Below, one piece after another: positions 1,250-52,645 of a stretch of DNA of 55,973 bases. Position numbers and translations under genes: made by a program. The stretch lies in the NCBI GenBank assembly GCA_964540655.1, contig CAZINR010000002.1:1736-57708 (forward strand), written 5' to 3'. Within the stretch, counting starts at the first letter, position 1. Every line of letters begins with the position of its first letter. The notes under the pieces were generated by a model. That model was not told the DNA's origin, made no database searches, and was given only the letters and a program-made list of their open reading frames with translations. The DNA is from an uncultured archaeon (lineage in GTDB: Archaea; Altiarchaeota; Altiarchaeia; JAFGQM01).

Positions 1250-1525
1250 GTTTTCGGGTCTAGAGTTTACTGACGCACGAGGCGGCGTGACTTCAAGTCC
1301 CGCCTCACCAATCCAGGCGCTTCGGGAATGTTCACGAGCTTCGACTTCGTCGAAGCTGTGCGCAGGTTCTCCTTGAGAACCTCGCGTTGGGTTTTCTGTC
1401 CTGGGTCACGAGGTTCATCTGCGATGAACCTGTGCGCAACTGCCTTGCGGGCAGTTCGCGTTTCCTCAGGTTTACAGTTCTCAGTCCTGTAGATGAAACC
1501 ATTTTGAACACCTGTTAGACTTATG
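1250..1525 (+). repeat. junction repeat JY1 (distal, degenerate)
   Basis: Degenerate core tcccgcctcacca at 1298-1310. Two 54-nt hairpin double-modules at 1333-1386 and 1407-1460. Terminal box accattttgaacacc at 1498-1512. It lacks the GAAGAC-rich left arm. Confidence 0.7.
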
Positions 1526-3967: not shown

Positions 3968-3968
3968 C

Positions 3969-5282: not shown

Positions 5283-5285
5283 AAA

Positions 5286-8218: not shown

Positions 8219-8841
8219 AGGAGACAAAAGAAAGCATTGAGCACCTGGAGCGTGTAGCTGATTGTTTGAGAAAAAATGGGTTCGATGCAAAAGTTTTTAT
8301 CGATCCTAATGGCATGGCCGATTATTTTCTGGATAAGATAGGCGCACATGATACTGTGGGTCTGGGCGGTTCGGTAACTATTGCAGAAACTGGCATAATC
8401 GAGCGGCTGGAGCTCAGGGGCAACATTATCTACAACCCATATGTCCAGCGCACAAGAAAGGAAGAGATGGACACAAGACGGAAGTGTCTACTGTCAGACT
8501 GGTTCATAACTGGGTCAAATGCAGTGACCGAGAATGGCCAGTTAGTCAATGTAGATGGCTTAGGCAGTAGGGTTTCAGCGATAGCATTCGGGCCGAAAAA
8601 TGTTCTGATAGTCGTTGGGAAGAACAAGATAGTGCCTGATGTTGAAGGGGGCTTCCAAAGGATAAAGGATCTGTCAGCACCGAAAAATGCGAAAAGGCGC
8701 GGCAATAAAACACCATGCGTAGACGGTAGATGCCCAGGATATGTCCCCGGGGAATGCATATGCAACATCCAGTCAGTTATTAATGGAGATGCTGCAGGCA
8801 GGATACATATCGCGCTAATATATCAAGAAATGGGCTATTAA
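8215..8841 (+). CDS. LUD-domain (LutC/YkgG-like) protein
   Basis: GTG start overlapping the upstream stop. TGSNAVTENGQLVNVDG and a C-terminal Cys cluster resemble the lactate-utilisation LUD family as I remember it. Confidence 0.5.
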   Translation: MKETKESIEHLERVADCLRKNGFDAKVFIDPNGMADYFLDKIGAHDTVGLGGSVTIAETGIIERLELRGNIIYNPYVQRTRKEEMDTRRKCLLSDWFITGSNAVTENGQLVNVDGLGSRVSAIAFGPKNVLIVVGKNKIVPDVEGGFQRIKDLSAPKNAKRRGNKTPCVDGRCPGYVPGECICNIQSVINGDAAGRIHIALIYQEMGY

Positions 8842-8855
8842 CGGAGCGGTTAAAG

Positions 8856-9959
8856 ATGTACGGCATAGAATCGGATGTATGCAAATTCATAGCAGACGGA
8901 GGTTATGGCAGGATTGTCTACGTCCCTTCGAGCAGTCTGGCTAAGTTGATAAGCCTCATTGAAAAAAGATGCCATTGCGAAGTCGCCACAAACGAGTCGG
9001 AAGCTACTGGGCTTGCAATAGGGTACCATCTTGCGGGCATAAAGCCGATTTTGCTTTGCCAGAGCGATGGTGTTGCTGTCATGTTGAATACCCTGTGCTC
9101 CACATGCTTGCCTTACGGGATAGACCTGCTAGTTCTTGTTGACGTTAGGGGCGGCCCCGAAGAGGAGAATCCCGTACACATACCCTTCGGCCAAGGCTTG
9201 CCGTCAGTTCTGGACGCACTGGGGTTCCCATACCTGGAGGTTCGGAAGAGCGCGGATTTTGAGGGTTTTGTGCTCAAACATGCGAGCAAGCCTAGGCAGA
9301 CACCCTTTTTCCTTTTGATATACCCATCCGCACTGACAAAGCCTGAAAAGAAGAACCCGCGGGATGTTCTGCAGAATCCAGATACAGGTGATACGACAAT
9401 TGATGCATTGAAAAAGATGTTTCCAAGCTCCAAATTCGTTTCCAGTCTTGGCTTGACTAGCCGGTTGCTGCATGGGGGCTGGGACGATAAGCACAATTTT
9501 TATGTGCTGGGATCAATGGGCGATTCCTTGGGCATTGCAAACGCTATATCAAAAACTAATAGCCGAAAGACTGTATGTGTAGTGGGCGATGGAGAGCTCT
9601 TAGCGGGCCTTGGCACTCTGGCAAAGATTGCTATTGACAAAAGTAATCTGCTTGTCGTAGTCCTGGATAACGAATGTCATCTGAGCACCGGAGGACAGAA
9701 CACCCTAACAGCAGAGGGTCTGAGATTTGATTTGGTAGCCAACGCTGTTGGTATCAAGCACACTAAGATGCTAGATGGTGTGGGGCAACTAAACGCCGAG
9801 CTTAATATTATACGCAAGAGCAGGGAGCCCGCTCTCATAGTCATAAAGGCGCAGCGGTGCGTACCGAGTTATCCTAGGATAAGAATGTGCCCTAACGAGA
9901 TAAAACATAGGTTCATGAAAGGATTCGAAAATAGCCCTATTAATGGGGACAAGGGGTAG
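8856..9959 (+). CDS. ThDP-dependent 2-oxoacid decarboxylase, fused alpha-beta, of the phosphonopyruvate / sulfopyruvate decarboxylase family
   Basis: N-terminal NESEATGLAIGY-type PYR domain. C-terminal GSMGDSLG...VGDGELL...LDNE ThDP-binding motif. Confidence 0.7.
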   Translation: MYGIESDVCKFIADGGYGRIVYVPSSSLAKLISLIEKRCHCEVATNESEATGLAIGYHLAGIKPILLCQSDGVAVMLNTLCSTCLPYGIDLLVLVDVRGGPEEENPVHIPFGQGLPSVLDALGFPYLEVRKSADFEGFVLKHASKPRQTPFFLLIYPSALTKPEKKNPRDVLQNPDTGDTTIDALKKMFPSSKFVSSLGLTSRLLHGGWDDKHNFYVLGSMGDSLGIANAISKTNSRKTVCVVGDGELLAGLGTLAKIAIDKSNLLVVVLDNECHLSTGGQNTLTAEGLRFDLVANAVGIKHTKMLDGVGQLNAELNIIRKSREPALIVIKAQRCVPSYPRIRMCPNEIKHRFMKGFENSPINGDKG

Positions 9960-9960
9960 A

Positions 9961-10980
9961 ATGGCGGCATCTTGGAACTTATTGGACTGCACATTAAGGG
10001 ATGGCGGATCAACCATCGGGTTTAACTTTCAGTTTGATGTCATCAATAGGGTACTTACTGGTCTTTCAAACGCAGGCATTGATTATGTCGAGCTGGGCTA
10101 TAGATCGGGGTCAGGGAGCGTACATGTTGAGAAGCCAGGCCCCACAGCTGACGTGAACAGAAGCTTCTTGGAGCAGATTGACTTCAGCACAAAAATAAAA
10201 AAGGCCGTGATGATAATACCTGCGGTTGCCAAAACCGAAGATTTGGATGTCCTTGCCGAATTCGGCATAGACCTTGTTAGGATAGCCGTGTACCCGCATA
10301 ACTTCGAAAATGCCATGGCCTTCGTTGATGCTGCGCTTAGATTGGGGCTTGAGTGCAGCGTGAATCAGATGGCCTCAAGCTATATGAGTGCAGATGACTT
10401 AGTGAAAAATGCTCTCGCAGTACAAGAGTGTGGCGCAAGCGTCTTTTATTTTGCGGATTCGTATGGGCATTTCATGCCGGAGGATGTCAACAGGCGAGTA
10501 GAGGCGTTAAAAGAGCAGTTAGATATGGAAATAGGCTTTCACGCCCATAACAACCTATCGCTGGGTTTATCAAATGCTATTGCTGCTATACGCTCTGGCG
10601 CAGACTTCATTGACGCCTCTCTTTGTGGCATGGGCAGAGGGGCGGGAAATGTGCAGATAGAGCTATTACCGTTCGTTCTTGATCTGGCAGACTTGAGTCG
10701 CCCGCAGGTTGACAAATCAGCACTGATGGAACTAAGTTCCATAATTGCCCCCCTGCGAAAAAATCCGTATTTGGGCACCGCAGAGATAATCTCTGGATCT
10801 TGCAACCTGCATTTCTTTTTCTATGAGCTCATACAACGGGCATCTCAGAAACTGGGCGTTTCGGAAATGGACATTGCGAGGGGGCTAAGTGCAATAAAAC
10901 CAAAGAAGGTAAGCGAGGAGCTGACCTTTGAAGTCGCTAGACAGATTTTATCCAACCATGGAGATAACATTCAGATCTAA
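9961..10980 (+). CDS. DRE-TIM metallolyase, 4-hydroxy-2-oxovalerate aldolase (DmpG)/HMG-CoA-lyase-like
   Basis: ATG at 9961 just after the upstream stop. LLDCTLRDGG and FHAHNNLSLGLSNAIAA motifs; DmpG-like length. Confidence 0.65.
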   Translation: MAASWNLLDCTLRDGGSTIGFNFQFDVINRVLTGLSNAGIDYVELGYRSGSGSVHVEKPGPTADVNRSFLEQIDFSTKIKKAVMIIPAVAKTEDLDVLAEFGIDLVRIAVYPHNFENAMAFVDAALRLGLECSVNQMASSYMSADDLVKNALAVQECGASVFYFADSYGHFMPEDVNRRVEALKEQLDMEIGFHAHNNLSLGLSNAIAAIRSGADFIDASLCGMGRGAGNVQIELLPFVLDLADLSRPQVDKSALMELSSIIAPLRKNPYLGTAEIISGSCNLHFFFYELIQRASQKLGVSEMDIARGLSAIKPKKVSEELTFEVARQILSNHGDNIQI

Positions 10981-11368
10981 GGGCTTCGGAGACTTGCAAG
11001 ATATCACAAAAGAAGTAGAAAAGATTGCGAACCTATCGAGCGTATCAAGCGGCATCATAACCCTATTCATCAGGGGCTCAACAACAGCCCTTGTGATTTA
11101 TAAAAATGATGCGGGTTCCATCCAAGATTTGATGGAAGCGCTTGGGGATCTCGCCCCGGCTGACAAAATATACAAGCACGAACAGACTTCGGGCGACAGC
11201 AATGGCGCGTCGCATATAAAGTCGGGGTTATTGGGGCCCTGCCTCACAATACCCTTTGTGGAAAACGAACTTTGTATCAGCAAAACACAAACAATTTTTG
11301 CCGTAGATTTTGATCCAAAGGAATCAAATCGAAGTATAATTGCGTGTGTATCAAAGGCGGAAGTCTAG
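10958..11368 (+). CDS. YjbQ/UPF0047 family protein (secondary thiamine-phosphate synthase-like)
   Basis: ATG at 10958. Family-typical GIITLFIRGSTTAL...NGASHIKSGLLGP. Confidence 0.7.
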   Translation: MEITFRSKGFGDLQDITKEVEKIANLSSVSSGIITLFIRGSTTALVIYKNDAGSIQDLMEALGDLAPADKIYKHEQTSGDSNGASHIKSGLLGPCLTIPFVENELCISKTQTIFAVDFDPKESNRSIIACVSKAEV

Positions 11369-11435
11369 ATGTAAAGACAGCTTGGATGCATCATTATCTT
11401 ACGGATGAGCAAAGCGGTTTATCATGGTCTCCGAG

Positions 11436-11561
11436 ATGAAGACGAAGATCTTCATAGTCCGTCACGGCAAATCCGAGGGTAACCTGAAGAGATGCTTCCA
11501 GGGCAGGGATGATATGCCTCATATACCCAGCAATTTGCATATTCTCTCAATTGCCACATAG
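11436..11561 (+). pseudogene. N-terminal remnant of a histidine phosphatase (PGAM-like) gene
   Basis: Own translation MKTKIFIVRHGKSEGNLKRCFQGRDDMP carries the RHG catalytic motif. It then runs into the 3' end of the convergent gene and stops after 41 codons. The full-length paralogue at 22058-22645 starts MRAILVRHGKTERSE. Confidence 0.55.
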
Positions 11562-12193
11562 CGGGTGCCCAGGAAATACTGCAGCTGTTTCCTTGCCAAA
11601 TCCATCCCGCCTATGAGTTCATCGAGCAGCTGCCCAGTGCCGATCAGTTCGGCGTATAACTTAATGTCGGGCATCTGCTCGCCGATAGAACTGTAATAAT
11701 TCGCAACCTTTCGGGCAGAATCCCCATCAACTGGAAGAATCAGTCTTAGATCCTTTTCATGTCTGAATGGATTGCGCATTCCGGGAATAAATCTCTCGGG
11801 TATCCCAGCTTCCTTTAATGCCGCGTCCCTATAGCCCATCTGGACAGAGTGTATGCGCGTCTTGTTAGCTGCATAGAAACGGATCACTTCGCCTTTGATA
11901 CTTTCAGGTATCTCCGTCTCGGGTTTTCCGAGCCACGAGCTTATAAGGTCCTCTGCGACTTTCCCATCTTTTTCGCCAAACAAGCGCTCGTATACGCCTA
12001 TGTTGATGATGTCCAGCTTTTTTGGTGTGGGCGTGCTATTTGCCATGATTTTGTCGACGTCAATTCCTGCGCTGTCAAAAATCAAACCCTCCGGAAGGCG
12101 CATCTTGGATGCAGTCCACCTGAATACTGCCTGAAAGGTCGGGCTGCGCTGGATGTTGCCGGAATCCACGCACCTGATTATGCATTTCTCCAT
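11519..12193 (-). CDS. hypothetical protein with a low-molecular-weight phosphatase-like N-terminus
   Basis: CVDSGNIQRSP resembles the LMW-PTP P-loop CxGNxCRS, but the C-to-R spacing is longer. The functional call is weak. Confidence 0.4.
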   Translation of the reverse strand: MEKCIIRCVDSGNIQRSPTFQAVFRWTASKMRLPEGLIFDSAGIDVDKIMANSTPTPKKLDIINIGVYERLFGEKDGKVAEDLISSWLGKPETEIPESIKGEVIRFYAANKTRIHSVQMGYRDAALKEAGIPERFIPGMRNPFRHEKDLRLILPVDGDSARKVANYYSSIGEQMPDIKLYAELIGTGQLLDELIGGMDLARKQLQYFLGTRYVAIERICKLLGI

Positions 12194-12295
12194 TGCATTC
12201 TAGTTAGAGTTCAGAAAAAGAAAAGCCGGCTTTTGATTAACCTCTTTTGACCGGGATGGCGCCCTTTGACCTCAAAGCACGAAGCCTGCTGCCAT

Positions 12296-12536
12296 CTACA
12301 AAGCCGCCAAAGCTAAGGAAGCAAGTGAAGGTCCAACCAATGTAACTGGTTTGAACCGAGGATAATGTCCCGCCTCCCGGAATCTAGGCGCTTCGCGCCT
12401 GTTTTCAGTTTTCTGTCCTGGGTCTTCCTTGGGTTTCCAGCACGAAGGTCCCGACGGGACCTTGTGCGCAGGTTTGTCTTCGGCAAACCTCGCGTTCTCG
12501 GTTTTCGAACTGGTCATTTTGAACACTGTTTTAGCA
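12296..12536 (+). repeat. junction repeat JY3
   Basis: Core at 12368-12381. Hairpin aggcgc-ttc-gcgcct at 12386-12400. Double-module at 12441-12494. Terminal box ggtcattttgaacac. The left flank lacks the GAAGAC arm. Confidence 0.8.
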
Positions 12537-12863
12537 TTAATAACCAAACCGCCTTTCGTAGTTCTTGTGGTCAAGCCACTCTAAGATGATGGAAATAATC
12601 TTCACTTCATCATCCGCCACAGAGTACATCAGCCTCCACCCGTTGGGCAGGTCGTATTTCCAGAGGTTGTCAATCCCATACTTCTTATAATCCTTTGAGA
12701 TTAGCCTTTTCGGCACATGGATTCCTGCTGAATGATCTCTCTTAAGATCCTCAATAGCCCTACTGATATATTCATGGAGGCGCTTGTCCTCATACTTTCC
12801 CCCTTTCAGATTTTCGTATGCTTCCTTAAGCTTTTCATCAACAAAATAGACCTCAGTTTTCAT
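12537..12863 (-). CDS. RelE/ParE-superfamily toxin-like protein
   Basis: 108 aa with C-terminal WRLMYSVADDEVKIISIILEWLDHKNYERRFGY, typical of a RelE-fold toxin. 4-nt overlap with the upstream partner. Confidence 0.55.
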   Translation of the reverse strand: MKTEVYFVDEKLKEAYENLKGGKYEDKRLHEYISRAIEDLKRDHSAGIHVPKRLISKDYKKYGIDNLWKYDLPNGWRLMYSVADDEVKIISIILEWLDHKNYERRFGY

Positions 12864-13117
12864 GCCTTCAACCTCGGATTGCTCGTTATCCTCCTTACAA
12901 GTTCAGGGTTCCAGACCCAGATTATCTGTCCGTCCTTTATTATGATCTTTCCAGAGTCCTGCAGGTAATCAAGGATGACGTTGAACGTCTGGTACATAAC
13001 CTTCTTCGGCAGGGATTTCCAAAGCTGCTTCTTTGTAGGATAGTCCTCATGTTCTTGTATGGCTTTTTCCACCATCAACACCGTATCCAACCTCGGATAA
13101 TGTAAAACCGCTTGCAT
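12860..13117 (-). CDS. antitoxin candidate (winged-helix-like)
   Basis: 85 aa, translationally coupled upstream of the toxin-like gene. Confidence 0.45.
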   Translation of the reverse strand: MQAVLHYPRLDTVLMVEKAIQEHEDYPTKKQLWKSLPKKVMYQTFNVILDYLQDSGKIIIKDGQIIWVWNPELVRRITSNPRLKA

Positions 13118-13157
13118 TTTTCAGTTATATATGTTTATACAATTAAAGAATAAAAAG

Positions 13158-13490
13158 GTTTTCTGTTTTCTAACCGGTCGGCGGTCAGGAAGACTCAAGA
13201 CCGATAACTGAAGACTGAAAATAATCCCGCCTCCCGGAAGGTATGCCCTTCGGGCATGTTTTGGGTTTTCTGTCCTGCGTCTTCCTCAGGTTTCCAGTTC
13301 ACTGTTTTCTGTGAACTGGTCATCTGGGAAACCCCGGGTAGGTTAATGAAAGTACAAAGAAAAATTACGCGCTCCGCCCGAATGTCACAAAGTGACATTG
13401 GGCGCAACTTCGCTTCGCGAAGTTCGCGCGCTAAGGACATAAAGGTAGGTGTTACACTACGACATGGACCATATGTAGTGTAAAACGCTC
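13158..13490 (+). repeat. junction repeat JY4
   Basis: taaccggtcggcgg terminus and GAAGAC arm. Core at 13225-13238. Hairpin atgccc-ttc-gggcat at 13243-13257. Hairpin at 13294-13319. Box gtcatctgggaaacc, then A-box acaaagaaaaa. Module at 13378-13429. TTACACTAC hairpin at 13452-13482. Confidence 0.85.
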
Positions 13491-13556
13491 ATTCTGTCTA
13501 ATAAATAGGCACTACAAAATTTAAAAGGTTTTTATTTCTGTAGCGCCTAAGTATAC

Positions 13557-14489
13557 ATGTCTTATTTAAGAGAAAAGAGGTCTGGAAAGAAAACTGGAAT
13601 TTACCTCACACAGAGTATACGTCTCAACGGTAAAATCAGGAATATTAGTGTTCTTTTGGGGTACAAACCAATAAGCGACATAGATAAATTAAAAAAACAA
13701 AAAGAGCCGATACTGAAAAAGAAGATAGAGCGGCTTCTATCTTCCGAAAGAGAGGATTACATGCTTTTGTCCGAGCAGGAAAGGCAAACCCTAAAGAATC
13801 TGGCTGAAGCTTATCAAAAAGCCCTCAAAAAATTCGACCCCGTCACCAAACAGAAATATCTTGACTGGTTCCTGACGCAGTTCACTTACGATACCAATGC
13901 GATAGAAGGCTCAAGCGTCCCTCTGGAAGAAGTCGGCCTGATATTATTCGACAAGGTAGTGCCTGCAGACAGGAATTTGAGGGAGGTCTACGAGGTCCAG
14001 AATCATAAGAAGGCATACGATTTCATAAACAAATATGTGGGCGATCTCAACTTTAAATTCATTATGGATGTCCATAGGCGCTTGATGTCAGAGATTATCT
14101 CAGATGCGGGAAAGACGCGTAAGGTTCGCGTGTTTGTAAGGGGATCTGACTTAAAGCCGCCCAAACCGGAAGACGTCTCAAAACATCTGGAAAATCTGGT
14201 CAAATGGTACAAGTCAAACAAATCTTTGCACCCTGTCTTGTTGGCAGCCCATATCCACTCGGAATTCGAGAGGATCCATCCGTTCAGGGACGGAAACGGC
14301 AGGACCGGCAGGCTCCTTCTTAACTTCATATTAATAAAGAACGACTATCCGCCGATAAACATACTGAATGAGAAGAGGGGCGCGTATTATTCGGCCCTTA
14401 GGGCTTGGGACAAAGGCGAAAAAAGACCTTTTGTCGAGCTTGTAATCTCATACATAAAAGACAGTGTCGGTTTTGTCACTAATCCCTAA
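13557..14489 (+). CDS. Fic/DOC family protein (AMPylase-type) with an internal inhibitory helix motif
   Basis: HPFRDGNGRTGRLL matches the Fic motif HxFx(D/E)GNGRxxR. TNAIEG matches the (S/T)xxxE(G/N) auto-inhibition motif. Confidence 0.9.
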   Translation: MSYLREKRSGKKTGIYLTQSIRLNGKIRNISVLLGYKPISDIDKLKKQKEPILKKKIERLLSSEREDYMLLSEQERQTLKNLAEAYQKALKKFDPVTKQKYLDWFLTQFTYDTNAIEGSSVPLEEVGLILFDKVVPADRNLREVYEVQNHKKAYDFINKYVGDLNFKFIMDVHRRLMSEIISDAGKTRKVRVFVRGSDLKPPKPEDVSKHLENLVKWYKSNKSLHPVLLAAHIHSEFERIHPFRDGNGRTGRLLLNFILIKNDYPPINILNEKRGAYYSALRAWDKGEKRPFVELVISYIKDSVGFVTNP

Positions 14490-14855
14490 CCTGTCGGCGG
14501 TCAGGAGGACTCAAGACCGATAACTGAAGACTGAAAATAATCCCGCCTCCCGGAATCCAGGCGCTGCGCCCGAAGGTCCCACCGGACCTTGGGCGCAACT
14601 TCTCTTCGAGAAGTTCGCGCGCCTGTTCACGAGCTTCGACTTCGTCGAAGCTGTGCGCAGGTTCTCCTTGAGAACCTCGCGTTCGGTCTTCTGTTCTGGG
14701 TTTTCCTCAGGTTTGCAGTCCACGGTTTTCTGTGGACTGGTCATCTTGGAAACACCCGGACTTTAACGAAAATACAAAGAAAAACTTATGCGCCTCCGGC
14801 GCAAAGGACATGAATCAGTGTTACACTACAACACGGGCAAGTGTAGTGTAAAACG
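14490..14855 (+). repeat. junction repeat JY5
   Basis: Core at 14541-14554. Double-modules at 14571-14621 and 14628-14681, the latter identical to 1333-1386. Hairpin at 14716-14739. Box gtcatcttggaaacaccc. A-box. TTACACTAC hairpin at 14821-14851. Confidence 0.85.
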
Positions 14856-14956
14856 CTTTTTAATTCTTGAATCCATAATATTAACACCACCTCACGGTGC
14901 CGAACCGTGAGACCCTCCTGGGCAACTTCGGTTGCGTCCAGGGGGACTTTACTCTT

Positions 14957-15643
14957 ATGACCAACAAGATACGCGTCAATTTCTACATAGATGGCTTCAA
15001 CGTTTATCACAGATTAAAGGACTACACCGAAAAGGCTGGTATTTGCTACAACTGGCTCGATTACAAAAGCCTGCTCAGTTCTCTACTCAAAGAGGGCGAG
15101 GAACTGGGCGAGATCTATTTCTTCACGGCCATATCTCAAAGGCACGGCGCTGACTCGGTTGTCAGACACAACAAATACGTCACCGCCCTAGAAGCCACTG
15201 GCGTTAATGTAGTCAAGGGCTATTTTACCAAGAAATACCGCAAGTGTAAGGTCAGGAGTTGCACTTATAAGGGCTTTAAGGAGTATCCTGACGAAGAAGA
15301 AAAAGAGACTGATGTCAAGATTGCTGTCCAAATGCTGAAAGATGCGGTAAATGATAAATTTGACAGATGTTTCCTGATGTCGGGCGATAATGATTTCGGC
15401 CCCGTTCTATTAGCGATTAAGGAATTGCGTCCAGACAAACAGGTCGGTTTGATAACGCCTCCTTTTGAACCCGGTATAGTGGACCTGATTAAGATGAGTG
15501 GGTTGAAAAAGGCATGTAGCGAGTGCAAAGGCCCGAGAATAAAAATGACGTTTGATAGACTTAAGGGGCATTCTTTGCCAAAGGAGGTAACAATTCCTGG
15601 AAAGCCGCCTGTCAAGATGCCAAAGGGTTATCGTACTTTTTAA
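14957..15643 (+). CDS. NYN-domain (LabA-like) putative RNase
   Basis: ATG at 14957. The N-terminus RVNFYIDGFNVYH and the later SGDNDF are the acidic motifs of NYN/LabA-like PIN-fold proteins. Confidence 0.65.
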   Translation: MTNKIRVNFYIDGFNVYHRLKDYTEKAGICYNWLDYKSLLSSLLKEGEELGEIYFFTAISQRHGADSVVRHNKYVTALEATGVNVVKGYFTKKYRKCKVRSCTYKGFKEYPDEEEKETDVKIAVQMLKDAVNDKFDRCFLMSGDNDFGPVLLAIKELRPDKQVGLITPPFEPGIVDLIKMSGLKKACSECKGPRIKMTFDRLKGHSLPKEVTIPGKPPVKMPKGYRTF

Positions 15644-15950
15644 CCGGTCGGCGGTCAGGAGGACCCAAGACTGAAGACCGCAGACCCTTTTCGCCCAAAG
15701 GCGAAAAGTAAAATCCCGCCTCCCGGAATCCAGGCGCGAAGCGCCTGTTCTCAGTTTTCTGTTTTGGGTCACTAGGTTCATCTGCGATGAACCTGTGCGC
15801 AACTGCCTTGCGGGCAGTTCGCGTTTCCCCAGGTTCCCAGTTCACGAGATTCGCCTTTAGCGAATCTGTGCACAGGTTCTCGGAGAGAACCTCGTGCTCT
15901 GCCGGAACCATCTCGGAAACACCTAGAGCGTAAGGAAAGCACAAAGAAAA
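15641..15950 (+). repeat. junction repeat JY6
   Basis: The taaccggtcggcgg terminus contains the NYN stop codon. Hairpin cttttcgcc/ggcgaaaag. Core at 15714-15727. Hairpin aggcgc-gaa-gcgcct at 15732-15746. Double-modules at 15770-15823 and 15843-15896. A-box. Confidence 0.85.
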
Positions 15951-15983
15951 ACATTTTTATCGACTAAGCCCCTAATATACACT

Positions 15984-16241
15984 ATGGATACACTGAAAGT
16001 CAACATATCCTTTCCGGTAGAGATGTACAAAAACGCCAAACTATTGGTGGACAATGGGTTTTATGGCTCTTTTTCCGAGATGGTTCGTAGTGGGATCAGG
16101 AATGAGATAGATATGCAGAGCCAGATAAATCCCGAATTCGTTGAGTCTATAAAAGTCGCTGAAGCTAGCGGATATAAAGACTACAAAACTGGGGAGGACA
16201 TGATTAGAGATCTCCACAAGGCCGCCAAGGAGAAGCGATGA
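15984..16241 (+). CDS. ribbon-helix-helix (CopG-like) antitoxin
   Basis: MDTLKVNISFPVEMYKNAKLLVDNGFYGSFSEMVRSGIRNE is a paralogue of the ORF at 25523-25789. ATGA overlap with the toxin. Confidence 0.6.
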   Translation: MDTLKVNISFPVEMYKNAKLLVDNGFYGSFSEMVRSGIRNEIDMQSQINPEFVESIKVAEASGYKDYKTGEDMIRDLHKAAKEKR

Positions 16242-16519
16242 TAGGCAACAAGGAATACAAGCCAAAACGCTCTAAATACTTCGAGAAGGATTATGTCTCG
16301 CTTGTGAGAAAGAACAGAGGTTTGCAAGAAAGACTTGACAAGAAGATACTGCAGATACTCGGGATGCCTGAGGTTTACAAGAACCTGAAGAAGCCCTTAC
16401 AGAGGTACAAAGCCGCGCATGTCGACCCATTTGTCATCACCTTCAGGATAGACGGGGATTATGTGAGGTTTGTCAGGGTTGCACACCATGATGTGGTTTA
16501 TGGGCTTCCACACGATTAG
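16238..16519 (+). CDS. RelE/ParE-superfamily toxin (HHD-type C-terminus)
   Basis: 93 aa; FVITFRIDGDYVRFVRVAHHDVVYG; coupled to the RHH gene. Confidence 0.6.
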   Translation: MIGNKEYKPKRSKYFEKDYVSLVRKNRGLQERLDKKILQILGMPEVYKNLKKPLQRYKAAHVDPFVITFRIDGDYVRFVRVAHHDVVYGLPHD

Positions 16520-16705
16520 TTCTCAGTTCTCTGTTTTTGCATTCCAACCGGTCGGCGGTCAGGAAGACTCAAGACTGAAGACTGAAAAAGGTCCCGCCTC
16601 CCGGAATGTAGGACCTTCGGCCCTGTCTTCGGTCTTTGTGTGGTTCACTGTCTACGGTCTTGTCTATAGGCCTGACCATTTTGAACACCGGACAGACTAA
16701 CGAAA
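16520..16705 (+). repeat. junction repeat JY7 (short form, no double-modules)
   Basis: ccaaccggtcggcgg plus GAAGAC arm. Core at 16592-16605. Hairpin aggacc-ttc-ggccct at 16610-16624. Terminal box gaccattttgaacacc. Confidence 0.8.
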
Positions 16706-16718
16706 CTATTGACATGAC

Positions 16719-16988
16719 TCATCTGATTCTGCGAAGATGTTTATATGCATTTCCTCTGTAGTCGACCATACGGATGACCAATAGGTCCTCCTTCTTATAA
16801 TAATCGACGAAGAGTCTGTAATCGCCGACGCGAATCTTAAGGAAGTCATAGCCTTTGACCGACTCAAGATATCTCTCCACGCTTTTGCCTATCTTCTGGT
16901 TGACTGTAGTGTAAATACGGTTGGCTATGTGTTTGTCGAGCTTCCTAAGATAATCTCTGGCTTTGGGGTCCCAGATTACGCGACTCAT
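16719..16988 (-). CDS. RelE/ParE toxin
   Basis: 89 aa; KIRVGDYRLFVDYYKKEDLLVIRMVDYRGNAYK is the classical RelE/ParE core. Confidence 0.7.
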   Translation of the reverse strand: MSRVIWDPKARDYLRKLDKHIANRIYTTVNQKIGKSVERYLESVKGYDFLKIRVGDYRLFVDYYKKEDLLVIRMVDYRGNAYKHLRRIR

Positions 16989-17179
16989 CCTCCGAACTCG
17001 GCCTTCATCTCTTCGTTTGAGATGAATTCGTCATTGGGCCTGTTCCTGGATTCCTCCACTCCTTTGACTATGTGGTCTGACAATTCACCCTCTTCGTCCA
17101 GGACTAATCTGATATGCGCAACCTCCTTCTTGAGGCCCATCAACTCTTTATGTATCTGATTCAGAGTCACGTTTTGCAT
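16985..17179 (-). CDS. antitoxin candidate
   Basis: 64 aa with a 4-nt overlap upstream of RelE. Confidence 0.5.
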   Translation of the reverse strand: MQNVTLNQIHKELMGLKKEVAHIRLVLDEEGELSDHIVKGVEESRNRPNDEFISNEEMKAEFGG

Positions 17180-17219
17180 TCTTATCGCATTAAGTTGATA
17201 GTCTAGGGATTAAAATTAA

Positions 17220-17500
17220 GGCTTTCCGTCTTGTCCGGTCGGCGGTCAAGTCGGTCTTCAGTCTTGGGTTTTCAGTCCTCGCTTGGATATCAAAAACCGA
17301 AGACTGTAAACTGTAGACCACTCCCCGAAGGGGAGTAAAATCCCGCCTCCCGGAGGGCCGCTTCGCCCGAAGGTCCCACCGGACCTTGGGCGCAACTTCT
17401 CTTCGAGAAGTTAGCGCGGCTGTCTACGGTCTTCTGTCTAGAGTCTTGGAAAGGTCTTCTGTCTACGGTCTGCGTAGACAGAGCCATTTTGAATCCTGCA
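17220..17500 (+). repeat. junction repeat JY8
   Basis: ccggtcggcgg. An inverted arm copy gtcggtcttcagtcttgggttttcagtcc. Hairpin ctcccc-gaa-ggggag. Core at 17341-17354. Module at 17368-17418, equal to 14571-14621 with 1 difference. Hairpin gtctacg/cgtagac. Box gccattttgaatcc. Confidence 0.8.
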
Positions 17501-17614
17501 CACTTACGATTCTGATATTATAAACCCATGACTAACAAAGGTGGCTGCAGATTGACAATATGGCATTTTTTAACAAGAAAGCCTTATATTAGCGCAAAAT
17601 TTGTAGGTGATAAA

Positions 17615-18313
17615 ATGACCGCGGCCACGAAGGAAATCGGAAAAATCAACAGGATAGGCATAGGCATACCTGAAGTGAACAAGCTGATTGAAGGCGGCAT
17701 ACCGGAATGCTCAATAGTCTTGCTCGCTGGTGAGCCTGGAACTGGAAAGACGATATTTGGCCTCCACTACATATCGGCCGGGGTAAAAGAAGGCGAAAAA
17801 TGTGCTTATGTGGCAATAGAACAAAATCCTGAGGAACTAAAGATACAAGCAAAGATACTCGGAAAGGATGTGGGCCCTGCGGAGTTTATCTCAGCCAAAG
17901 ACATTAAATATGATCTCGGTCTCGGCAAAAAGCCTGAAGACGTTATTGAGAAAATCAAACTCGTTCTTGAGAAGCTACAAAAGCTTAAAGTAAAGAGGGT
18001 AGTTATCGATTCTGTCAGCTCCCTTCAACTGGAGGATGGAATCAAGGCTAGGCTTGTTGTCAAAATGCTCGTGGACGGGTTGAAGAAACTGGGCGCAACC
18101 GCAGTGATTACAGGAGAATCCTTGAACGGAATTTACCCCGATGAGGTCACCCCTTTCCTCGTTGACGGGATGATTGTGCTTAAGAGGACTCACATTGGGA
18201 ACGAAACTCGCCGGGTTTTGGAGGTGATTAAGATGAGGCTTACGGACTGTAACGACTCGCCCCAACAATTTGAGATAACTAAAAAGGGAATTAAGATCAT
18301 TGCGGGCGAATAA
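17615..18313 (+). CDS. KaiC/RecA-superfamily ATPase (single-domain, archaeal KaiC-like)
   Basis: ATG at 17615. Walker A GEPGTGKT, Walker B-like VVIDSVS. The GIPE...VLLAGEPG context is typical of KaiC-like proteins. Confidence 0.7.
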   Translation: MTAATKEIGKINRIGIGIPEVNKLIEGGIPECSIVLLAGEPGTGKTIFGLHYISAGVKEGEKCAYVAIEQNPEELKIQAKILGKDVGPAEFISAKDIKYDLGLGKKPEDVIEKIKLVLEKLQKLKVKRVVIDSVSSLQLEDGIKARLVVKMLVDGLKKLGATAVITGESLNGIYPDEVTPFLVDGMIVLKRTHIGNETRRVLEVIKMRLTDCNDSPQQFEITKKGIKIIAGE

Positions 18314-18342
18314 GCTATACTCGCCCCTCCTTCATTCTTGAA

Positions 18343-19491
18343 ATGGCGGGGCCCGGCAAAGTATTTGAGGACATAAAAGCCAAGATTTACGACAAGTTCA
18401 TTCAATACTTTGTGATAACAAGGGGCGAAGTAATAGACCAACCCGGTTTTATACTCTGTAGATTTACCAGCGGTTCTTATGATATTTCCTTAAGGGAGTT
18501 CGTATTTCCCGAAAGCCTGTTCTGTGAACTTGAAAGCGCCATTGTAAAAAAATACGGGGACAAAGGCAAACAGGCCCTCTATTCTGCCGGAAAGAAATTT
18601 GGCTATAGGTATGCTAAAATTTCCGGCCTTGCCACAATTGCCAAATCTGGAGAGAAAAGATTTAAGAAAGAATTGTATGATGCAGTTAGGTATATGGAGA
18701 CAATTTATGCAGAGGGTATTCGGCATATTGTCGATTTGAAAAAAAGCCTTTTTGAGGCCAGTCTAAACCAATACGTAGTCTGTAGACTGAATGGTTTGGG
18801 GTATCTGCTTACCGAAGGCTCTGTGGCGGGCACTCTTGCGTATATGCTGGATAACAAAGATGTCGAAGGCACACAGATTCAATGCCAGGGGAGAGGGGAC
18901 AAGCTCTGTAAACTCATTTGTGCGCCCAAGCAGTACCTGAAAAACAAAAAAATAGCATTCCTTGAGGAAAATGACTACACAAAACTCGAGCTGAGCATTG
19001 ATTATCCAAGAATGAACGCAGTGCGCCAATGCAAATTTGCTACACAGTCATTCAAATCATTGGTGGATTCGGGATTCTATAAATATGAGCCCGGAGTCGC
19101 TAAATTTGGAAATGAAAGGTATCTTTTTTGCGAATCCAGCATATGGTATCTCATTGAAATTGAGCTGGGTAAATTAGGCGCGAATGGCCTAATATTCGAC
19201 GTTGCATTTGAAACTGGGAAAAAAGTGGGCAAGGAGCATAAGAGATACGGCGCAAAGGGGTTCCTTACGGACTATCTTTCCTCTTTGGGGTATGGAGATG
19301 TCCAGCAACTCAGCGAAAGGGAAGTGTCCATAGACTATTTCCCATGGACCCGCTACGTTGATGAAATACAGTTTGATTTACTTCGGGGGCTTGTTTCAGG
19401 ATTGCTAAGTGGGCTTACTGGAAAAGAGATTAAGCTAAGAAAAGTGGAGTATAGGGAAGATGACGGTTTCCTGAGCATAGCCATTAAATAA
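18343..19491 (+). CDS. hypothetical protein, possibly a tandem V4R-like (4-vinyl-reductase-type) ligand-binding protein
   Basis: 382 aa. CQGRGDKLCKLIC and the surrounding pattern resemble a V4R domain from memory only, so the functional call is weak. Confidence 0.4.
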   Translation: MAGPGKVFEDIKAKIYDKFIQYFVITRGEVIDQPGFILCRFTSGSYDISLREFVFPESLFCELESAIVKKYGDKGKQALYSAGKKFGYRYAKISGLATIAKSGEKRFKKELYDAVRYMETIYAEGIRHIVDLKKSLFEASLNQYVVCRLNGLGYLLTEGSVAGTLAYMLDNKDVEGTQIQCQGRGDKLCKLICAPKQYLKNKKIAFLEENDYTKLELSIDYPRMNAVRQCKFATQSFKSLVDSGFYKYEPGVAKFGNERYLFCESSIWYLIEIELGKLGANGLIFDVAFETGKKVGKEHKRYGAKGFLTDYLSSLGYGDVQQLSEREVSIDYFPWTRYVDEIQFDLLRGLVSGLLSGLTGKEIKLRKVEYREDDGFLSIAIK

Positions 19492-20329
19492 GAAAAACTG
19501 CCGCAAAAAGAAGAACGAAAATATCGACAAGAAGCATAACCTCTATATGTATTCTCCTATATTCCGCCCGGGTGCGTGCCTTCATGAAATTATCAAATAA
19601 GATTATATATGCCGGCAATACTAAGAACCCCAACATAAATTTGGAGGGAAGGGCTCCTGTAAGTATCATAATGAAAAGGGTGAGAAAAAAGACATAGTTA
19701 AGAATCACATAGGTCGTTGGTTTATAATACCTCTTGAGCTTGGGGAGTGTGGAACCGTTTTTATCGCCCTCAACATCTTCAAAATCCTTAATCTGCGAGG
19801 CGATGAAGATATAGGCGCCCATTATCGCTATTACATTCCACTGAAGCGCGCTTATCTGATGGGCGGACACTGCTAAGCCTATGATGGTGCCCAGGGCGCC
19901 CCAGGTAAGCCCCATAACAAGATAGTTTACAAGAAGAACCTCCTTCAGCCTTAGTTTTTCAAATGAATAAAGAACCCCGATTAGCAGGCTTACAAGAACT
20001 GCAGATTGTAAGAGTTGCGTTCCCAAAAAACTAAGAACAATAGAGGCCCCCGCCAAGAAGATGAAAAAAGGGAAAAGCTCTTTTTTTGAAAGATTTTTAT
20101 GGACAAATAAATTTTTCCTGTTTATGGTGTCAACTTCCCAGTCGGCTATCACATTTAATACAGTTATTGAGGAGACTAAAAACCACCATACTGCAAATGC
20201 AAAAGCAATGTTTATAATGGTCAGCGAACCGCCCATAGCCAAACCCAAAATAACAAAGACCGAAAGCAGGAAATTGTGGGGATAAGTCGCAATTAGCAAC
20301 GCCTTTAATTTGCTTATGGGCGAATCCAT
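19484..20329 (-). CDS. UbiA-family aromatic/isoprenoid prenyltransferase (integral membrane)
   Basis: 281 aa, multi-TM. NVIADWEVD and KDFEDVEGD are the two Asp-rich UbiA motifs. Confidence 0.7.
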   Translation of the reverse strand: MDSPISKLKALLIATYPHNFLLSVFVILGLAMGGSLTIINIAFAFAVWWFLVSSITVLNVIADWEVDTINRKNLFVHKNLSKKELFPFFIFLAGASIVLSFLGTQLLQSAVLVSLLIGVLYSFEKLRLKEVLLVNYLVMGLTWGALGTIIGLAVSAHQISALQWNVIAIMGAYIFIASQIKDFEDVEGDKNGSTLPKLKRYYKPTTYVILNYVFFLTLFIMILTGALPSKFMLGFLVLPAYIILFDNFMKARTRAEYRRIHIEVMLLVDIFVLLFAAVFLI

Positions 20330-20419
20330 TGTAGGGGCACTATTTAGTGGGTTGGGAACTAAAAACAGAATTTGATTAAGGTTGCTGGCAAAATATGGTG
20401 CCTTTGATTGGGGCTAGCT

Positions 20420-20505
20420 TTCTCTTGGCTTAGACTGAAAACCTCTCCGGGCAGACCCTGGACTGAAGACCGCAGACCCTTTTCGCCCAAAGGCGAAAAG
20501 TAAAA
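20420..20505 (+). repeat. junction half-repeat JY9 (left arm only) abutting the tRNA-Tyr 3' end
   Basis: agactgaaaacc...ggactgaagaccgcagac, then the hairpin, then gtaaaa. The same left arm occurs in JY2 and JY6. The core here is the functional tRNA 3' end. Confidence 0.8.
20479..20500 (-). terminator. T-tract plus 9-bp hairpin immediately downstream of tRNA-Tyr
   Basis: The minus strand reads ...GGGA TTTTAC CTTTTCGCC TTTG GGCGAAAAG. The same element is copied in JY2 (2354-2375) and JY6. Confidence 0.4.
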
Positions 20506-20616
20506 TCCCGCCTCCCGGATTTGAACCGGGGATCTTCCGGTAACCGTCTTTTCTCAGGCTCTCGCCCGAAAGCAAACTACAGCCAGACGCGTTAAACCAG
20601 ACTACGCTAAGGCGGG
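20506..20616 (-). tRNA. tRNA-Tyr(GTA) with a 35-nt intron at 37/38
   Basis: Manual fold of the minus strand: CCCGCCT-TA-GCGT-AGTCTGGTTTA-ACGC-G-TCTGG-CTGTAG[intron]A-CCGGA-AGATC-CCCGG-TTCAAAT-CCGGG-AGGCGGG-A. C1-G72 is the archaeal/eukaryal Tyr identity pair. No CCA is encoded. Confidence 0.85.
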
Positions 20617-20637
20617 AAAAAGCTCGCTCGAAAGCGC

Positions 20638-24522: not shown

Positions 24523-24567
24523 GGGTTGTTATCGGGTTCAAGGCTTAAATATCTTATGTGCGAATCA

Positions 24568-24812
24568 CTAGCTGGAAAGCTCGACTGCGGCCGCCGGGGA
24601 AATTTTGAAAGGTTTTCGGTTTTGAGTTTTCGGGTTTGTCTAAGGGAAGCCCAGTTTACAGTTCTGGGTCCTGAGTTTCGCATTTAGCGAAACTGGGCGC
24701 GAAGGTATGTAGGACCTTGCGCGCAACTTGCTTTGTGGCAAGTTCGCGCACAGTTCGCTTCGCGAACTTCGTGTTCCTGTTACGCTCCAGCCACTTAAAG
24801 AAACTAAAAAGA
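24568..24812 (+). repeat. junction repeat JG1 (distal)
   Basis: Core at 24586-24598. Right arm ggttttcggttttgagttttcggg...cccagtttacagttctggg. Hairpin modules at about 24674-24772. A-box aaaaagaaaaac. No left GAAGAC arm. Confidence 0.8.
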
Positions 24813-24816
24813 AAAA

Positions 24817-25038
24817 CTAATCCAAAAGCTCCAAGAACTCCTCAACCTTTAACTCTGCCTGCTTGATAATACTCATTACAGTCTTAATGCTCAGTTCGCC
24901 TTTAGCAGGGATTGTAGCAGGAGGCTTGGTTGGGTGCCTCATTCTAACATGCGAACCTCTTTGTCTAACAAACTCATAACCGAGTTTACTTAGGGCTTTG
25001 ATTGCGTCTTTTCCAGAAATAACAGGTATCCGCCTCAT
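24817..25038 (-). CDS. hicA: HicA toxin
   Basis: 73 aa. GKDAIKALSKLGYEFVRQRGSHVRMRH is the HicA/YcfA signature. Confidence 0.85.
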   Translation of the reverse strand: MRRIPVISGKDAIKALSKLGYEFVRQRGSHVRMRHPTKPPATIPAKGELSIKTVMSIIKQAELKVEEFLELLD

Positions 25039-25256: not shown

Positions 25257-25295
25257 TTTTGTGCAGTAATTAGAAGGTTGGACTAAAAGAATCTT

Positions 25296-25470
25296 TAACC
25301 GCCGGCCCCATTAACCAAAACTGAAAACCGCAGACTGAAGACTGCTTTCGAAGAAAGCTTGAGTGCGGCCGCCGGGGAAATTTTGAAAGGTTCTCGGTTT
25401 TGAGTTTTCGGTTTTGTCTAAGGGAAGCCCAGTTTACAGTTCTGGGTTTCCTGGCCCGTTCTGATTTTCT
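25296..25470 (+). repeat. junction repeat JG2
   Basis: Left arm aaaactgaaaaccgcagactgaagact plus hairpin gctttc-gaa-gaaagc. Core at 25364-25376. The right arm is nearly identical to that of JG1. Confidence 0.85.
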
Positions 25471-26027: not shown

Positions 26028-26184
26028 GTCCGTCGGCCTCATTAAGAAGACCGGGAACCAAGACTAAAGACTGCTTTCGAAGAAAGCTTGAATGCGGCCG
26101 CCGGATGGCAAGGTGGACACGGCCTCCAGGCATATGACCTTGCCAGTAGCGGGCGCACCGGGGCTAAGCCGAGAGAAAGTAAGG
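26027..26184 (+). repeat. junction repeat JG3 plus an 80-bp gene-less unit
   Basis: ggtccgtcggcc terminus, left arm, and hairpin gctttc-gaa-gaaagc. Core at 26093-26105. Then a 9-bp-stem hairpin tggcaaggt...accttgcca before the true tRNA end. Confidence 0.8.
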
Positions 26185-26303
26185 TGCGGCCGCCGGGATT
26201 CGAACCCGGGTTCTGGGCTTTCTCCACGCTTTCTTTTCATCGACTTTTCTTTTGAAAAGATCGTGTGGAAGGCCCAAGTGATACCAGACTACACCACGGC
26301 CGC
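26185..26303 (-). tRNA. tRNA-Gly(TCC) with a 46-nt intron at 37/38
   Basis: Manual fold: GCGGCCG-TG-GTGT-AGTCTGGTA-TCAC-T-TGGGC-CTTCCA[intron]A-GCCCA-GAAC-CCGGG-TTCGAAT-CCCGG-CGGCCGC-A. Confidence 0.85.
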
Positions 26304-52159: not shown

Positions 52160-52400
52160 AAGTAGCGGATCCGCCGGTTCGAGCGAATGCGAGAAGCACG
52201 CTTCACGACACGAAGTTCACAAAAGTGAACTTGTGCCCAATTTGGCTTTGCCAAATTCGGGAGTGAAGCGAAGGGGCCGTCGAGCATACGCTAAGCCTTG
52301 GTAAGACGGACCCGCCGGGATGTTGAGAAGAAACCTTCCTTAGCATAAGCTTCTCGACATAAGGCGGGACCGGCCGAGGCTGAGCTAAGGCATATGAGGA
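52160..52400 (+). repeat. tRNA-Arg-anchored gene-less junction copies JR1/JR2
   Basis: Degenerate copy gcggatccgccggttcgagcg at about 52165-52186. Exact 16-nt copy gacggacccgccggga at 52305-52320. Hairpin double-module at 52204-52263. The flank gctaag is also duplicated. Confidence 0.7.
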
Positions 52401-52533
52401 CGGACCCGCCGGGATTCGAACCCGGGTCACGGGATCTCTTCAACCATCTCAGCTCCCCGTTTTGGGGATAAAACACCTTTTTTGAAAGGGGTTTCCGAAG
52501 TCCCGTAGTATATCCTGGCTAACCCACGGGCCC
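52401..52533 (-). tRNA. tRNA-Arg(TCG) with a 59-nt intron at 37/38
   Basis: Manual fold: GGGCCCG-TG-GGTT-AGCCAGGATA-TACT-A-CGGGA-CTTCGG[intron]A-TCCCG-TGAC-CCGGG-TTCGAAT-CCCGG-CGGGTCC-G. The D-stem has one mismatch. Confidence 0.75.
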
Positions 52534-52645
52534 GCGCGCGTAGGTGCTTTTTATTAGAACTTTACTTAAATTAAACCCAAGCAGGCATCCAGCAAGCTGG
52601 AGGGACTTTTATTGTTCGTTTTCATATAGATACTCTCACAATAAA

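Follow-up and report, generated by a model that had tools for sequence, protein, structure and literature searches.

The palindromic modules in and around positions 14571-14681 of the window (the whole 55,973-nt stretch of archaeal DNA analysed here) probably represent a lineage-specific family of miniature (48-57 bp), non-autonomous insertion elements. This reading draws on their sharp ends, the lack of target duplication, their presence or absence at corresponding sites, their nesting, their occurrence in unrelated contexts and their restriction to one lineage. As such, the family is an archaeal selfish palindromic element of the kind of REP dimers (BIMEs) and Rickettsia palindromic elements (RPEs). 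Its unusual traits are a size of about 54 bp, strictly abutting inverted units, pervasive covariation, the colonisation of tRNA introns and in-frame insertions in ribosomal-protein genes. The modules are neither part of the recombination site of the gene cassettes among which they lie nor confined to tRNA-linked cores.

Modules in the window

The interval 14571-14681 belongs to a 300-nt spacer between a Fic-domain gene (13557-14489) and an NYN-domain gene (14897-15643), and two neighbouring modules, 14569-14619 and 14628-14681, lie in this spacer. The whole window holds 11 modules, that is 22 hairpin units, when degenerate copies are counted by eye and the composite at 24670-24773 is taken as one (Table 1). 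The grammar pattern matches the window seven times and none of 100 dinucleotide shuffles, and a stricter search, for single hairpin units, counts 19 in the window, whereas 50 shuffles average 0.14.

The upstream module of the spacer reads CCCGAA-GGTCC-CACC-GGACC-TTGGG / CGCA-ACTTCTC-TTCG-GAGAAGT-T(C)GCG and is inserted in the apical loop of a scaffold hairpin, AGGCGC..GCGCCT (14557-14626); the region folds as two bulged hairpins inside the host stem. At junctions 12369 and 15715 the same scaffold hairpin is present but empty. Its neighbour is inserted between scaffold CCTGTT and TTCGG, again with no duplication of the target. The composite consists of an outer module (24670-24697 and 24749-24773) and a complete inner module (24698-24748), which is placed exactly at the dyad centre of the outer one (CTGGG^CACA). 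Such nesting at a dyad centre recurs in two of the collected loci (L013 and L024), giving three cases.

The initial annotation had listed several of these copies, and they exist. The pair starting at 1333 and 14628 is indeed identical, and the pair starting at 1407 and 15770 is near-identical, with a single change from CACGAG to CACTAG. The pair placed at 14571-14621 and 17368-17418 is likewise real and differs by one change (TCGCG to TAGCG), although its bounds had to be moved to those in Table 1, position 14571 lying 2 nt inside the unit. The further variants were recovered as the modules starting at 12441, 13377, 15843 and 52209, and the remaining one is the nested composite.

Table 1. Features of the window and module-bearing tRNA introns of related loci
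Feature	Position	Strand	Basis
Module, 54 nt, identical to the module at 14628 and at the same scaffold position	1333..1386	.	pattern and scaffold alignment
Module, 54 nt, between scaffold GGGT and TTTCC	1407..1460	.	pattern and scaffold alignment
Module, 54 nt, between scaffold CCAG and TTC	12441..12494	.	pattern and scaffold alignment
Module, 52 nt, Fic-cassette leader, within a small GCGC hairpin (loop)	13377..13428	.	pattern
Junction scaffold hosting two modules	14486..14790	.	motif reading and scaffold alignment
Module, 51 nt, CCC/CGC type	14569..14619	.	pattern and hairpin-unit search
Module, 54 nt, CAC/CGC type	14628..14681	.	pattern, hairpin-unit search and scaffold alignment
Copy of the 1407 module, same scaffold position, bulged G mutated (CACTAG)	15770..15823	.	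scaffold alignment
Module, 54 nt, CAC/CAC type, centre TGCACA	15843..15896	.	hairpin-unit search and scaffold alignment
Copy of the 14569 module, same hairpin-loop position, right foot mutated (TAGCG)	17366..17416	.	scaffold alignment
tRNA-Tyr(GTA), intron-bearing	20505..20617	-	Rfam; ARAGORN with introns
Nested composite	24670..24773	.	reading of the site
tRNA, intron-bearing	26183..26303	-	Rfam; ARAGORN with introns
Module, 53 nt, within a unit-like host hairpin (loop), GCTTCAC..GTGAAGC (52198-52270)	52209..52261	.	hairpin-unit search
tRNA-Arg, intron-bearing	52398..52534	-	Rfam; ARAGORN with introns
tRNA introns with a module: Ala (L007), Gly (L009), Thr (L012; L014/L040), Trp (L029), Ser (L046)			ARAGORN, good cloverleaf

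Cassette arrays and their junction scaffolds

Rfam and ARAGORN with introns allowed identify three intron-bearing tRNA genes in the window, all on the minus strand, whereas ARAGORN with its default setting reports no tRNA at all. An array of low-GC cassettes lies downstream of each of the three. The cassettes contain toxin-antitoxin pairs, Fic and NYN proteins, a KaiC-like ATPase and a 9-kb PEP-mutase/radical-SAM cluster; the window also encodes a UbiA protein. A conserved scaffold of about 120 nt separates the cassettes; within it, a 9-mer (ACTGAAGAC / GTCTTCNGT) is repeated in inverted runs on either side of a 13-16-nt copy of a tRNA 3' end. Specifically, copies of the last 13-16 nt of tRNA-Tyr are found at each junction, at 1299, 2382, 12369, 13226, 14542, 15715, 16593 and 17342. 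The scaffold at 14486-14790 is made up of 9-mer motifs, the tRNA 3'-end copy (14541-14556), the host hairpin, GTYTTCNGT motifs and GGTCATCTTGGAAACACC.

The scaffold looks like an att-type recombination site, and no integrase or transposase domain was detected in 40 ORFs of the window. All 11 window modules sit in the junction scaffolds of the three arrays, with the one at 52209-52261 located downstream of tRNA-Arg; the module at 13377 lies in a gene leader, outside the scaffold proper. The modules are passengers in these att-like scaffolds and not the recombination sites themselves.

Architecture of the unit and the module

A module consists of two inverted copies of one unit of about 27 nt, joined tail to tail with zero gap, U(+)U(-). 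The unit has the form 5'-C-N-C-(G)-A-R-stem-loop-stem-Y-T-G-N'-G-3', in which a 3-bp foot (C-N-C/G-N'-G) is followed by a bulged G, an A-T pair, an R-Y pair and a variable stem of 5-8 bp. In the 350 kb made up by the window and the collected loci there are 135 units of 25-30 nt, and of 60 pairs of neighbouring units, 56 show this inverted, tail-to-tail arrangement with zero gap. The comparison with the BIME/REP mosaics of bacteria that had been drawn from the letters alone thereby holds at the level of construction, as the modules are inverted pairs of imperfect palindromes.

Among 52 distinct module sequences, length ranges from 48 to 57 nt with a mode of 54. The modules end in 6-nt terminal inverted repeats, CNCGAR...YTCGNG, and the end word C-N-C-G-A-R is found in all 52; three foot subtypes occur, CAC, CCC and CGC. 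The initial annotation had described these words as fixed linkers between stems. They turn out to pair across the unit, CNC-G-AR with YT-GNG (the G being skipped) and CRCA with T-(C)-GYG, so that each half of the module is one hairpin of 11-13 bp with a single bulged base. The variable stems had been said to differ completely while always pairing: pairing is indeed conserved, whereas the stems vary around a consensus, GTTCRC...GYGAAC, with compensatory changes.

Either DNA strand, or its transcript, folds alike into two hairpins, the 5' one with its bulge, a G, in the 5' arm and the 3' one with its bulge, a C, in the 3' arm. Because both strands share this architecture, the orientation of a module merely reflects which foot type (CAC, CCC or CGC) stands on which side. 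Loops read AAA or GAA as often as TTT or TTC and thus show no strand preference, and how a module is oriented towards the nearest tRNA varies from locus to locus, so that no one strand is universally transcribed.

Pairing is maintained by compensatory change

Base pairing in the modules is maintained by compensatory change. In the 52 distinct modules, the foot pair N/N', both positions of which were left free (N) in the search pattern, is A-T in 23, C-G in 19, G-C in 8 and G-T in 2, with zero mismatches. A count over 15 gap-free modules found 98.8% of cells paired and double changes in 14 of 23 pairs (53 cells); none of 500 shuffles scored as high, and sliding the partners by 1-3 columns reduced pairing to 24-39%. 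The module at 13377-13428 and its orthologous copies L039:507-560 and L020:12963-13016 likewise differ by compensatory double changes (TGTCAC/GTGACA vs TGTCGC/GCGACA, and ACTTCGC vs ACTTCAC). ViennaRNA folds of 14560-14690 yield exactly the two predicted hairpins per module, at a folding energy far under that of shuffles (z -8.1 for DNA, + strand, and -7.8 for RNA, - strand).

Gene conversion within the palindromes, rather than selection, could partly produce this pattern. A three-way-junction fold, in which the two module ends pair with each other, was discarded, since one end pair is mismatched in 39 of the 52 modules. An apparent 6:0 bias of G.T over A.C pairs, from which a strand might have been deduced, proved to be an artefact of the orientation rule for near-symmetric modules.

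Modules are discrete insertions

The modules are discrete insertions with sharp ends and without target duplication, present or absent at orthologous sites. In an alignment of eight window junctions and three junctions from relatives, they form clean gap blocks at six or more, that is at least six, different scaffold positions. Excising exactly CNCGAR...YTCGNG restores the scaffold length, which excludes a target-site duplication. Junctions carry zero to two modules at variable positions, and those at 2382 and 16593 carry none. The Fic cassette with its scaffold is also found in L005, L034 and L043, and in the orthologous Fic-cassette junction of L034 (75% identity) the module occupies another scaffold position than in the window.

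These data change how the junctions are to be read. Identical modules in different combinations had been taken as shuffling; a given module sequence, however, is always found at one and the same place in the paralogous scaffold, and what varies from junction to junction is which of these places are filled, so that the apparent shuffling is differential occupancy among paralogous junctions. The modules are not at a fixed place in the junctions either, as the orthologous Fic junctions of the window and L034 illustrate. The proposed tie to tRNA-derived cores stands insofar as all window copies lie in cassette junctions, but two junctions are empty, and an intrinsic tie is contradicted by relatives, whose modules also lie in tRNA introns, leaders, other modules and ribosomal-protein genes. 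In turn, the notion of generic REP-like elements spread evenly through the genome, which the initial annotation had set against its own reading, comes close to the findings in that modules occur outside cassette junctions, but not in their spread, which strongly favours tRNA-linked and hairpin-rich non-coding DNA.

The bases flanking module ends reveal no fixed target word: the first base is C in 52% and G in 4%, and TTCG is frequent beside one end. Insertions favour hairpin apices, dyad centres and TTC-rich tracts. Insertions in the apical loop of a host hairpin are seen at 14557-14626 and 52198-52270 of the window, in the L022 group and in L006/L023, L015/L029, L033 and L035. Most copies differ from one another, and the few near-identical copies in differing contexts document recent transposition only thinly; some 'copies' reflect duplication of whole scaffolds or whole introns.

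Distribution in related genomes

Across 185,579 species genomes, one per species, the grammar pattern is found at 10 sites, all in five uncultured archaeal MAGs, and the only one of these named to phylum is assigned to Candidatus Altiarchaeota. A further 32 metagenome contigs carry the pattern. On viral contigs the strict pattern has no match, and four matches to a loose pattern were dismissed as chance hits without hairpins. A looser regular expression combined with a hairpin filter yields 61 sites with the 52 distinct sequences; their contexts were assigned by reading, an automatic count of the 9-mer motif being too crude. The nearest relatives in the searched collections are about 70-78% identical to the window.

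In these relatives, six well-formed tRNA genes carry modules within introns of 121-248 nt at the canonical position (Table 1). A tRNA-Pro reported by ARAGORN in L008 was left out of the count for its poor cloverleaf. The homologous intron in the window, that of tRNA-Arg, has no module. Introns of different tRNAs in module-bearing genomes share sequence. Other modules lie in 5' leaders, in att-like scaffolds and in tRNA-like minihelices beside partial tRNA copies.

That no archaeal element with this grammar had been described agrees with the literature searched, in which we found no published description of the family. A general survey of MITEs names Ca. Altiarchaeum hamiconexum as having the highest MITE density among archaea (PMC11602168); the present family is not described in that survey.

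Insertions in ribosomal-protein genes

In-frame modules occur in the genes of three ribosomal proteins, S6e, uL4 and eL32. In S6e (L006/L016) the module lies in the C-terminal tail, ...KEHKEA[REGREATLRTGSPEANLV]PKEHK..., whereas uL4 (L044) starts with MMAEKKAKG[REVRKANLRTGSSKTNLA]TKKK and eL32 (L027) with MAEKKTTE[REVHKVNLRTGSSKTNLV]KKKAK. An alignment of 18 close S6e homologues shows the module peptide in 4 and not in the other 14; it occupies at least three positions, and one of the four carriers has two copies. At the DNA level, two S6e contigs from sister samples differ by one module-bearing segment. A DDE insertion sequence beside S6e in L048 was considered as a partner and set aside, its ends being unrelated to the modules.

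The uL4 and eL32 modules, which stem from one metagenome, agree at 51 of 54 nt (3 of 54 positions differ). This near-identity provides the strongest hint that a module was recently copied from one gene to another, unrelated one. Stop-free modules make up 71-85% per frame in each of the six frames, and 32 of the 52 lengths are divisible by 3; with most modules open in every frame and many lengths a multiple of three, some can survive in coding sequence. A 54-aa query of tandem module peptides, run against proteins, returned nothing at E<=10.

Comparison with known repeats

The closest likeness is to bacterial REPs, BIMEs and REPINs, which share imperfect palindromic units of 20-40 nt with one bulge and a conserved tag at one end, a nearly invariable arrangement as inverted dimers whose members have different stems (heterodimers), a mostly extragenic and sometimes intragenic location, several subtypes per genome, and nesting and clustering. 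REPs form inverted dimers, can be intragenic and include RPE families (PMC3733652, PMC10969869), and for the CGTC superfamily of REPs the transposase has not been identified (PMC3733652). The modules differ in their tag, CNC-G-AR rather than GTAG or CGTC, and in their host, which is archaeal, whereas REP surveys list bacterial phyla only (PMC3733652, PMC2817692). Within a module, one unit follows the other with zero spacer and no pairs form between the two, the stems are far more diverse and show pervasive compensatory change, and the modules are frequent in tRNA introns. Furthermore, phmmer found no RAYT-like gene in the window and the collected loci, which are genome fragments.

With RPEs the modules share in-frame palindromic inserts in unrelated protein genes that add a peptide absent from orthologues, the lack of a known transposase and an occurrence in non-coding RNA contexts as well (PMC10969869, PMC3733652). 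RPEs are bacterial and measure about 100-150 bp, while the modules measure 48-57 bp and have no CGTC tag; in addition, the coding hits of the modules (54 bp) are seen only in disordered ribosomal-protein tails.

Like MITEs and the IS200/IS605-derived PATEs, the modules are small, non-autonomous and structured, and they share with IS200/IS605 derivatives hairpins at both ends and the lack of target duplication. Classical MITEs have target duplications, whereas the modules have 6-nt terminal inverted repeats and no target duplication where this was tested. The hairpins at IS200/IS605 ends are directly oriented and set back, in contrast to the inverted, terminal hairpins of the modules, and IS200/IS605 elements insert 3' of a fixed tetra- or pentanucleotide, whereas the modules show only a C-rich first base and frequent TTCG. 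A parent insertion sequence or TnpA was not found in the window and the collected loci, again as genome fragments.

Proposed mechanism and alternative explanations

Enzymes of the HUH type make their cuts within hairpins or next to them, and no duplication results. The bulged hairpin conserved on either strand and the precise, apex-favouring insertion would fit a structure-specific nuclease or transferase of this type. We propose that the modules spread at the DNA level as structured single strands and that they are recognised by the shape of their bulged hairpins, not by sequence, through a structure-specific enzyme encoded in trans. By analogy, the best candidate would be an HUH/Y1-type (RAYT- or Rep-like) nuclease, which would insert modules with precision where hairpin apices are exposed, at dyad centres and in pyrimidine-rich TTC tracts. 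Copies would then persist where they are harmless: splicing removes introns, the scaffolds between cassettes do not code for protein, and the disordered, Lys/Glu-rich tails of proteins may accommodate 17-19 additional residues, since most modules lack stop codons in all six frames. A phmmer search with E. coli RayT, an insensitive single-sequence query, found no match at E<=10 among 1,710 six-frame ORFs of the window and loci, which are genome fragments, and all-against-all clustering of 338 ORFs near modules returned only synteny and the Fic cassette, with no recurrent neighbour gene.

An alternative that we consider unlikely is that the modules are structured RNAs selected by the host, whose stable twin hairpins protect transcripts, insulate cassettes or serve processing or protein binding; a function retained by the host has been proposed for some REPs and BIMEs. 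The low folding energy, the many loops of UUCG or GAA type, the transcribed position of leaders, inter-cassette spacers and introns alike, and a covariation that conserves structure are all what such RNAs would show. The strand-symmetric design, with its balanced loops and no favoured strand, nevertheless speaks against it, as do the erratic presence among paralogous and orthologous junctions (two of them empty) and the location of modules both in introns that are discarded and in coding sequence that is translated. In uL4, moreover, the mRNA strand shows an A.C foot pair, and the opposite strand shows G.T. Mobility at the RNA level, by which modules would enter abundant RNAs through reversed splicing-endonuclease/RtcB chemistry and then be copied into DNA, appears distinctly improbable. 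It would account for the over-representation of tRNA introns (six genes), for three coding hits that all fall in highly expressed ribosomal-protein genes, for precise insertion without target duplication and for the sequence common to introns of different tRNAs. Archaeal BHB introns, however, have a bulge-helix-bulge at both boundaries, whereas none can be drawn at module boundaries and the minimum-free-energy folds are two separate, independent hairpins; a stem joining the ends is contradicted by the 39 mismatched modules; the coding copies, stop-free and 54 nt long, are as expected if translated and not spliced; and no reverse transcriptase was seen in the window and collected loci.

That the modules might serve the cassette arrays as folded, attC-like sites of recombination, or as accessory sites that are obligatory, is more improbable still. 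Integron attC sites also lie between cassettes, conserve structure rather than sequence and form imperfect hairpins that contain extrahelical bases; all 11 modules of the window occupy junction scaffolds, and the scaffold's own hairpin CAGTTCAC..GTGAACTG resembles the unit stem. Yet the modules are not one per cassette, two junctions having none and the others one or two at varying positions, and they are not at the crossover point; the module at 13377 is in a leader, and tRNA introns and ribosomal-protein genes hold modules far from any array. They also lack R''/L''-L'/R' boxes and a RYYYAAC/GTTRRRY core, and no integrase domain was detected in 40 window ORFs. Finally, we give hardly any credence to, and on grounds of frame, length and covariation reject, the idea of a coding repeat, in which the modules would supply a peptide segment to short ORFs on the minus strand, each beginning at the conserved GGTG..ATG of its junction. 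Such ORFs (36-99 aa) do cross modules, and in 6 of 8 junctions they stay in frame through the tRNA core; the modal length of 54 nt equals 18 codons. Against this, just 32 of 52 lengths are divisible by 3, adjacent modules within one ORF are read in different frames (as judged by reading), one module precedes the ATG, composition alone leaves most frames open, and covariation keeps nucleotide pairing and not residues.

Implications

REP-, BIME- and RPE-type repeats are documented for bacteria in surveys, and the module family would extend the phenomenon to archaea with a unit grammar of its own. It offers a very clean natural case of structure kept by compensatory change and shows selfish DNA in three safe havens, namely spliced tRNA introns, recombination-site scaffolds and disordered ribosomal-protein tails. 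A bolder version, in which the modules are substrates of an undescribed archaeal hairpin-apex mobility system coupled to integron-like tRNA-anchored arrays, is in our view unlikely. If it were true, the enzyme would be a loop-nicking Rep/HUH-like nuclease or would use tRNA-splicing/RtcB-linked chemistry, and longer tRNA introns and new peptide segments in ribosomal proteins would be side effects. The modules furthermore flag the scaffolds between the cassettes of what appears to be an undescribed tRNA-anchored system; that system merits its own study.

The family also has practical consequences. Modules break assemblies and add spurious ORFs and extra residues to annotated proteins, and they inflate tRNA introns beyond what default tRNA finders allow for, ARAGORN and Rfam having missed several genes. 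In turn, they provide a specific sequence marker for this Altiarchaeota-related lineage.

The window has three intron-bearing tRNA genes, each followed downstream by an array of low-GC cassettes. The layout of these arrays is integron-like, although a search of 40 window ORFs detected no integrase domain. A copy of the tRNA 3' end, embedded in a conserved scaffold of ~120 nt, marks the boundary of each cassette, and inverted runs of a 9-mer (ACTGAAGAC / GTCTTCNGT) flank this copy. Among the cargo are toxin-antitoxin pairs, Fic, NYN, a KaiC-like ATPase and, within the tRNA-Tyr array, a PEP-mutase/radical-SAM cluster of 9 kb that is likely devoted to phosphonate biosynthesis. The Fic cassette, together with its scaffold, is also present in three other genomes (L005, L034 and L043; L numbers denote module-bearing loci from related archaeal MAGs or metagenomes).

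Features of the tRNA-anchored arrays and of related loci (window positions unless a locus is named)
Feature	Location	Strand	Description
Low-GC cassette arrays	1250-20620, 24560-26310, 52160-52540		downstream of three intron-bearing tRNA genes
~9-kb cassette	3092-11368		PEP mutase, two B12-binding radical-SAM enzymes, HMGL-like/LeuA-type enzymes, TPP enzyme
tRNA-like minihelix	26094-26186, ~52290-52400; also L005, L010, L011, L018		adjoins partial tRNA 3'-end copies
Junction ORFs	1332-1502, 2306-2479, 12296-12517, 13195-13323, 14511-14744, 15612-15911, 16569-16679, 17290-17487	minus	one per junction
Module with outer CCTTCA..TGAAGG stem	L006:3150-3330 (= L016:600-790)		just upstream of S6e start codon

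The tRNA genes of this lineage contain long introns of 35-248 nt (window 20505-20617, 26183-26303 and 52398-52534; L007, L009, L012, L014, L029 and L046), and introns of different tRNAs have sequence in common, such as a CTTTC-TTTT-GAAAG hairpin and 9-mer motifs. ARAGORN with default settings detected 0 of the 3 window tRNAs, and Rfam at its gathering threshold did not detect tRNAs with introns longer than ~100 nt. Just 3' of tRNA genes lies a tRNA-like minihelix, whose acceptor-like stem matches the neighboring tRNA and which additionally has one hairpin with CATATGCC..GAGG..GTGTCCAC in its loop. The sole Rfam match to the minihelix is a weak, sub-threshold one to permuted tmRNA; the loop motif also occurs within enlarged units (hairpin halves of the module) of L028 and L029.

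Every window junction also holds a minus-strand ORF of 36-99 aa that runs across the modules and the tRNA core. Its start codon is a conserved ATG with GGTG ahead of it, and the reading frame across the core (..REAG..) is preserved in 6 of the 8 junctions. Despite this conserved start context, the junction ORFs are probably non-coding.

Beyond the window, one identical module with flanking scaffold (CCACCAGTCAGATA..GACTGGTGGAATCCTCTGATTTGAA) is found in six contigs of metagenome Ga0209121 (L017, L022, L026, L030, L031 and L042). It lies within ~20-110 nt of a contig end in all six, and the genes past it differ among them; such repeats evidently break assemblies. The module upstream of the ribosomal protein gene S6e in L006 and L016 has a direct repeat of 17 nt (CACAAAACAAAATGGAA) on its flanks, which takes in the S6e start codon; no other module was seen to have a long duplication beside it.
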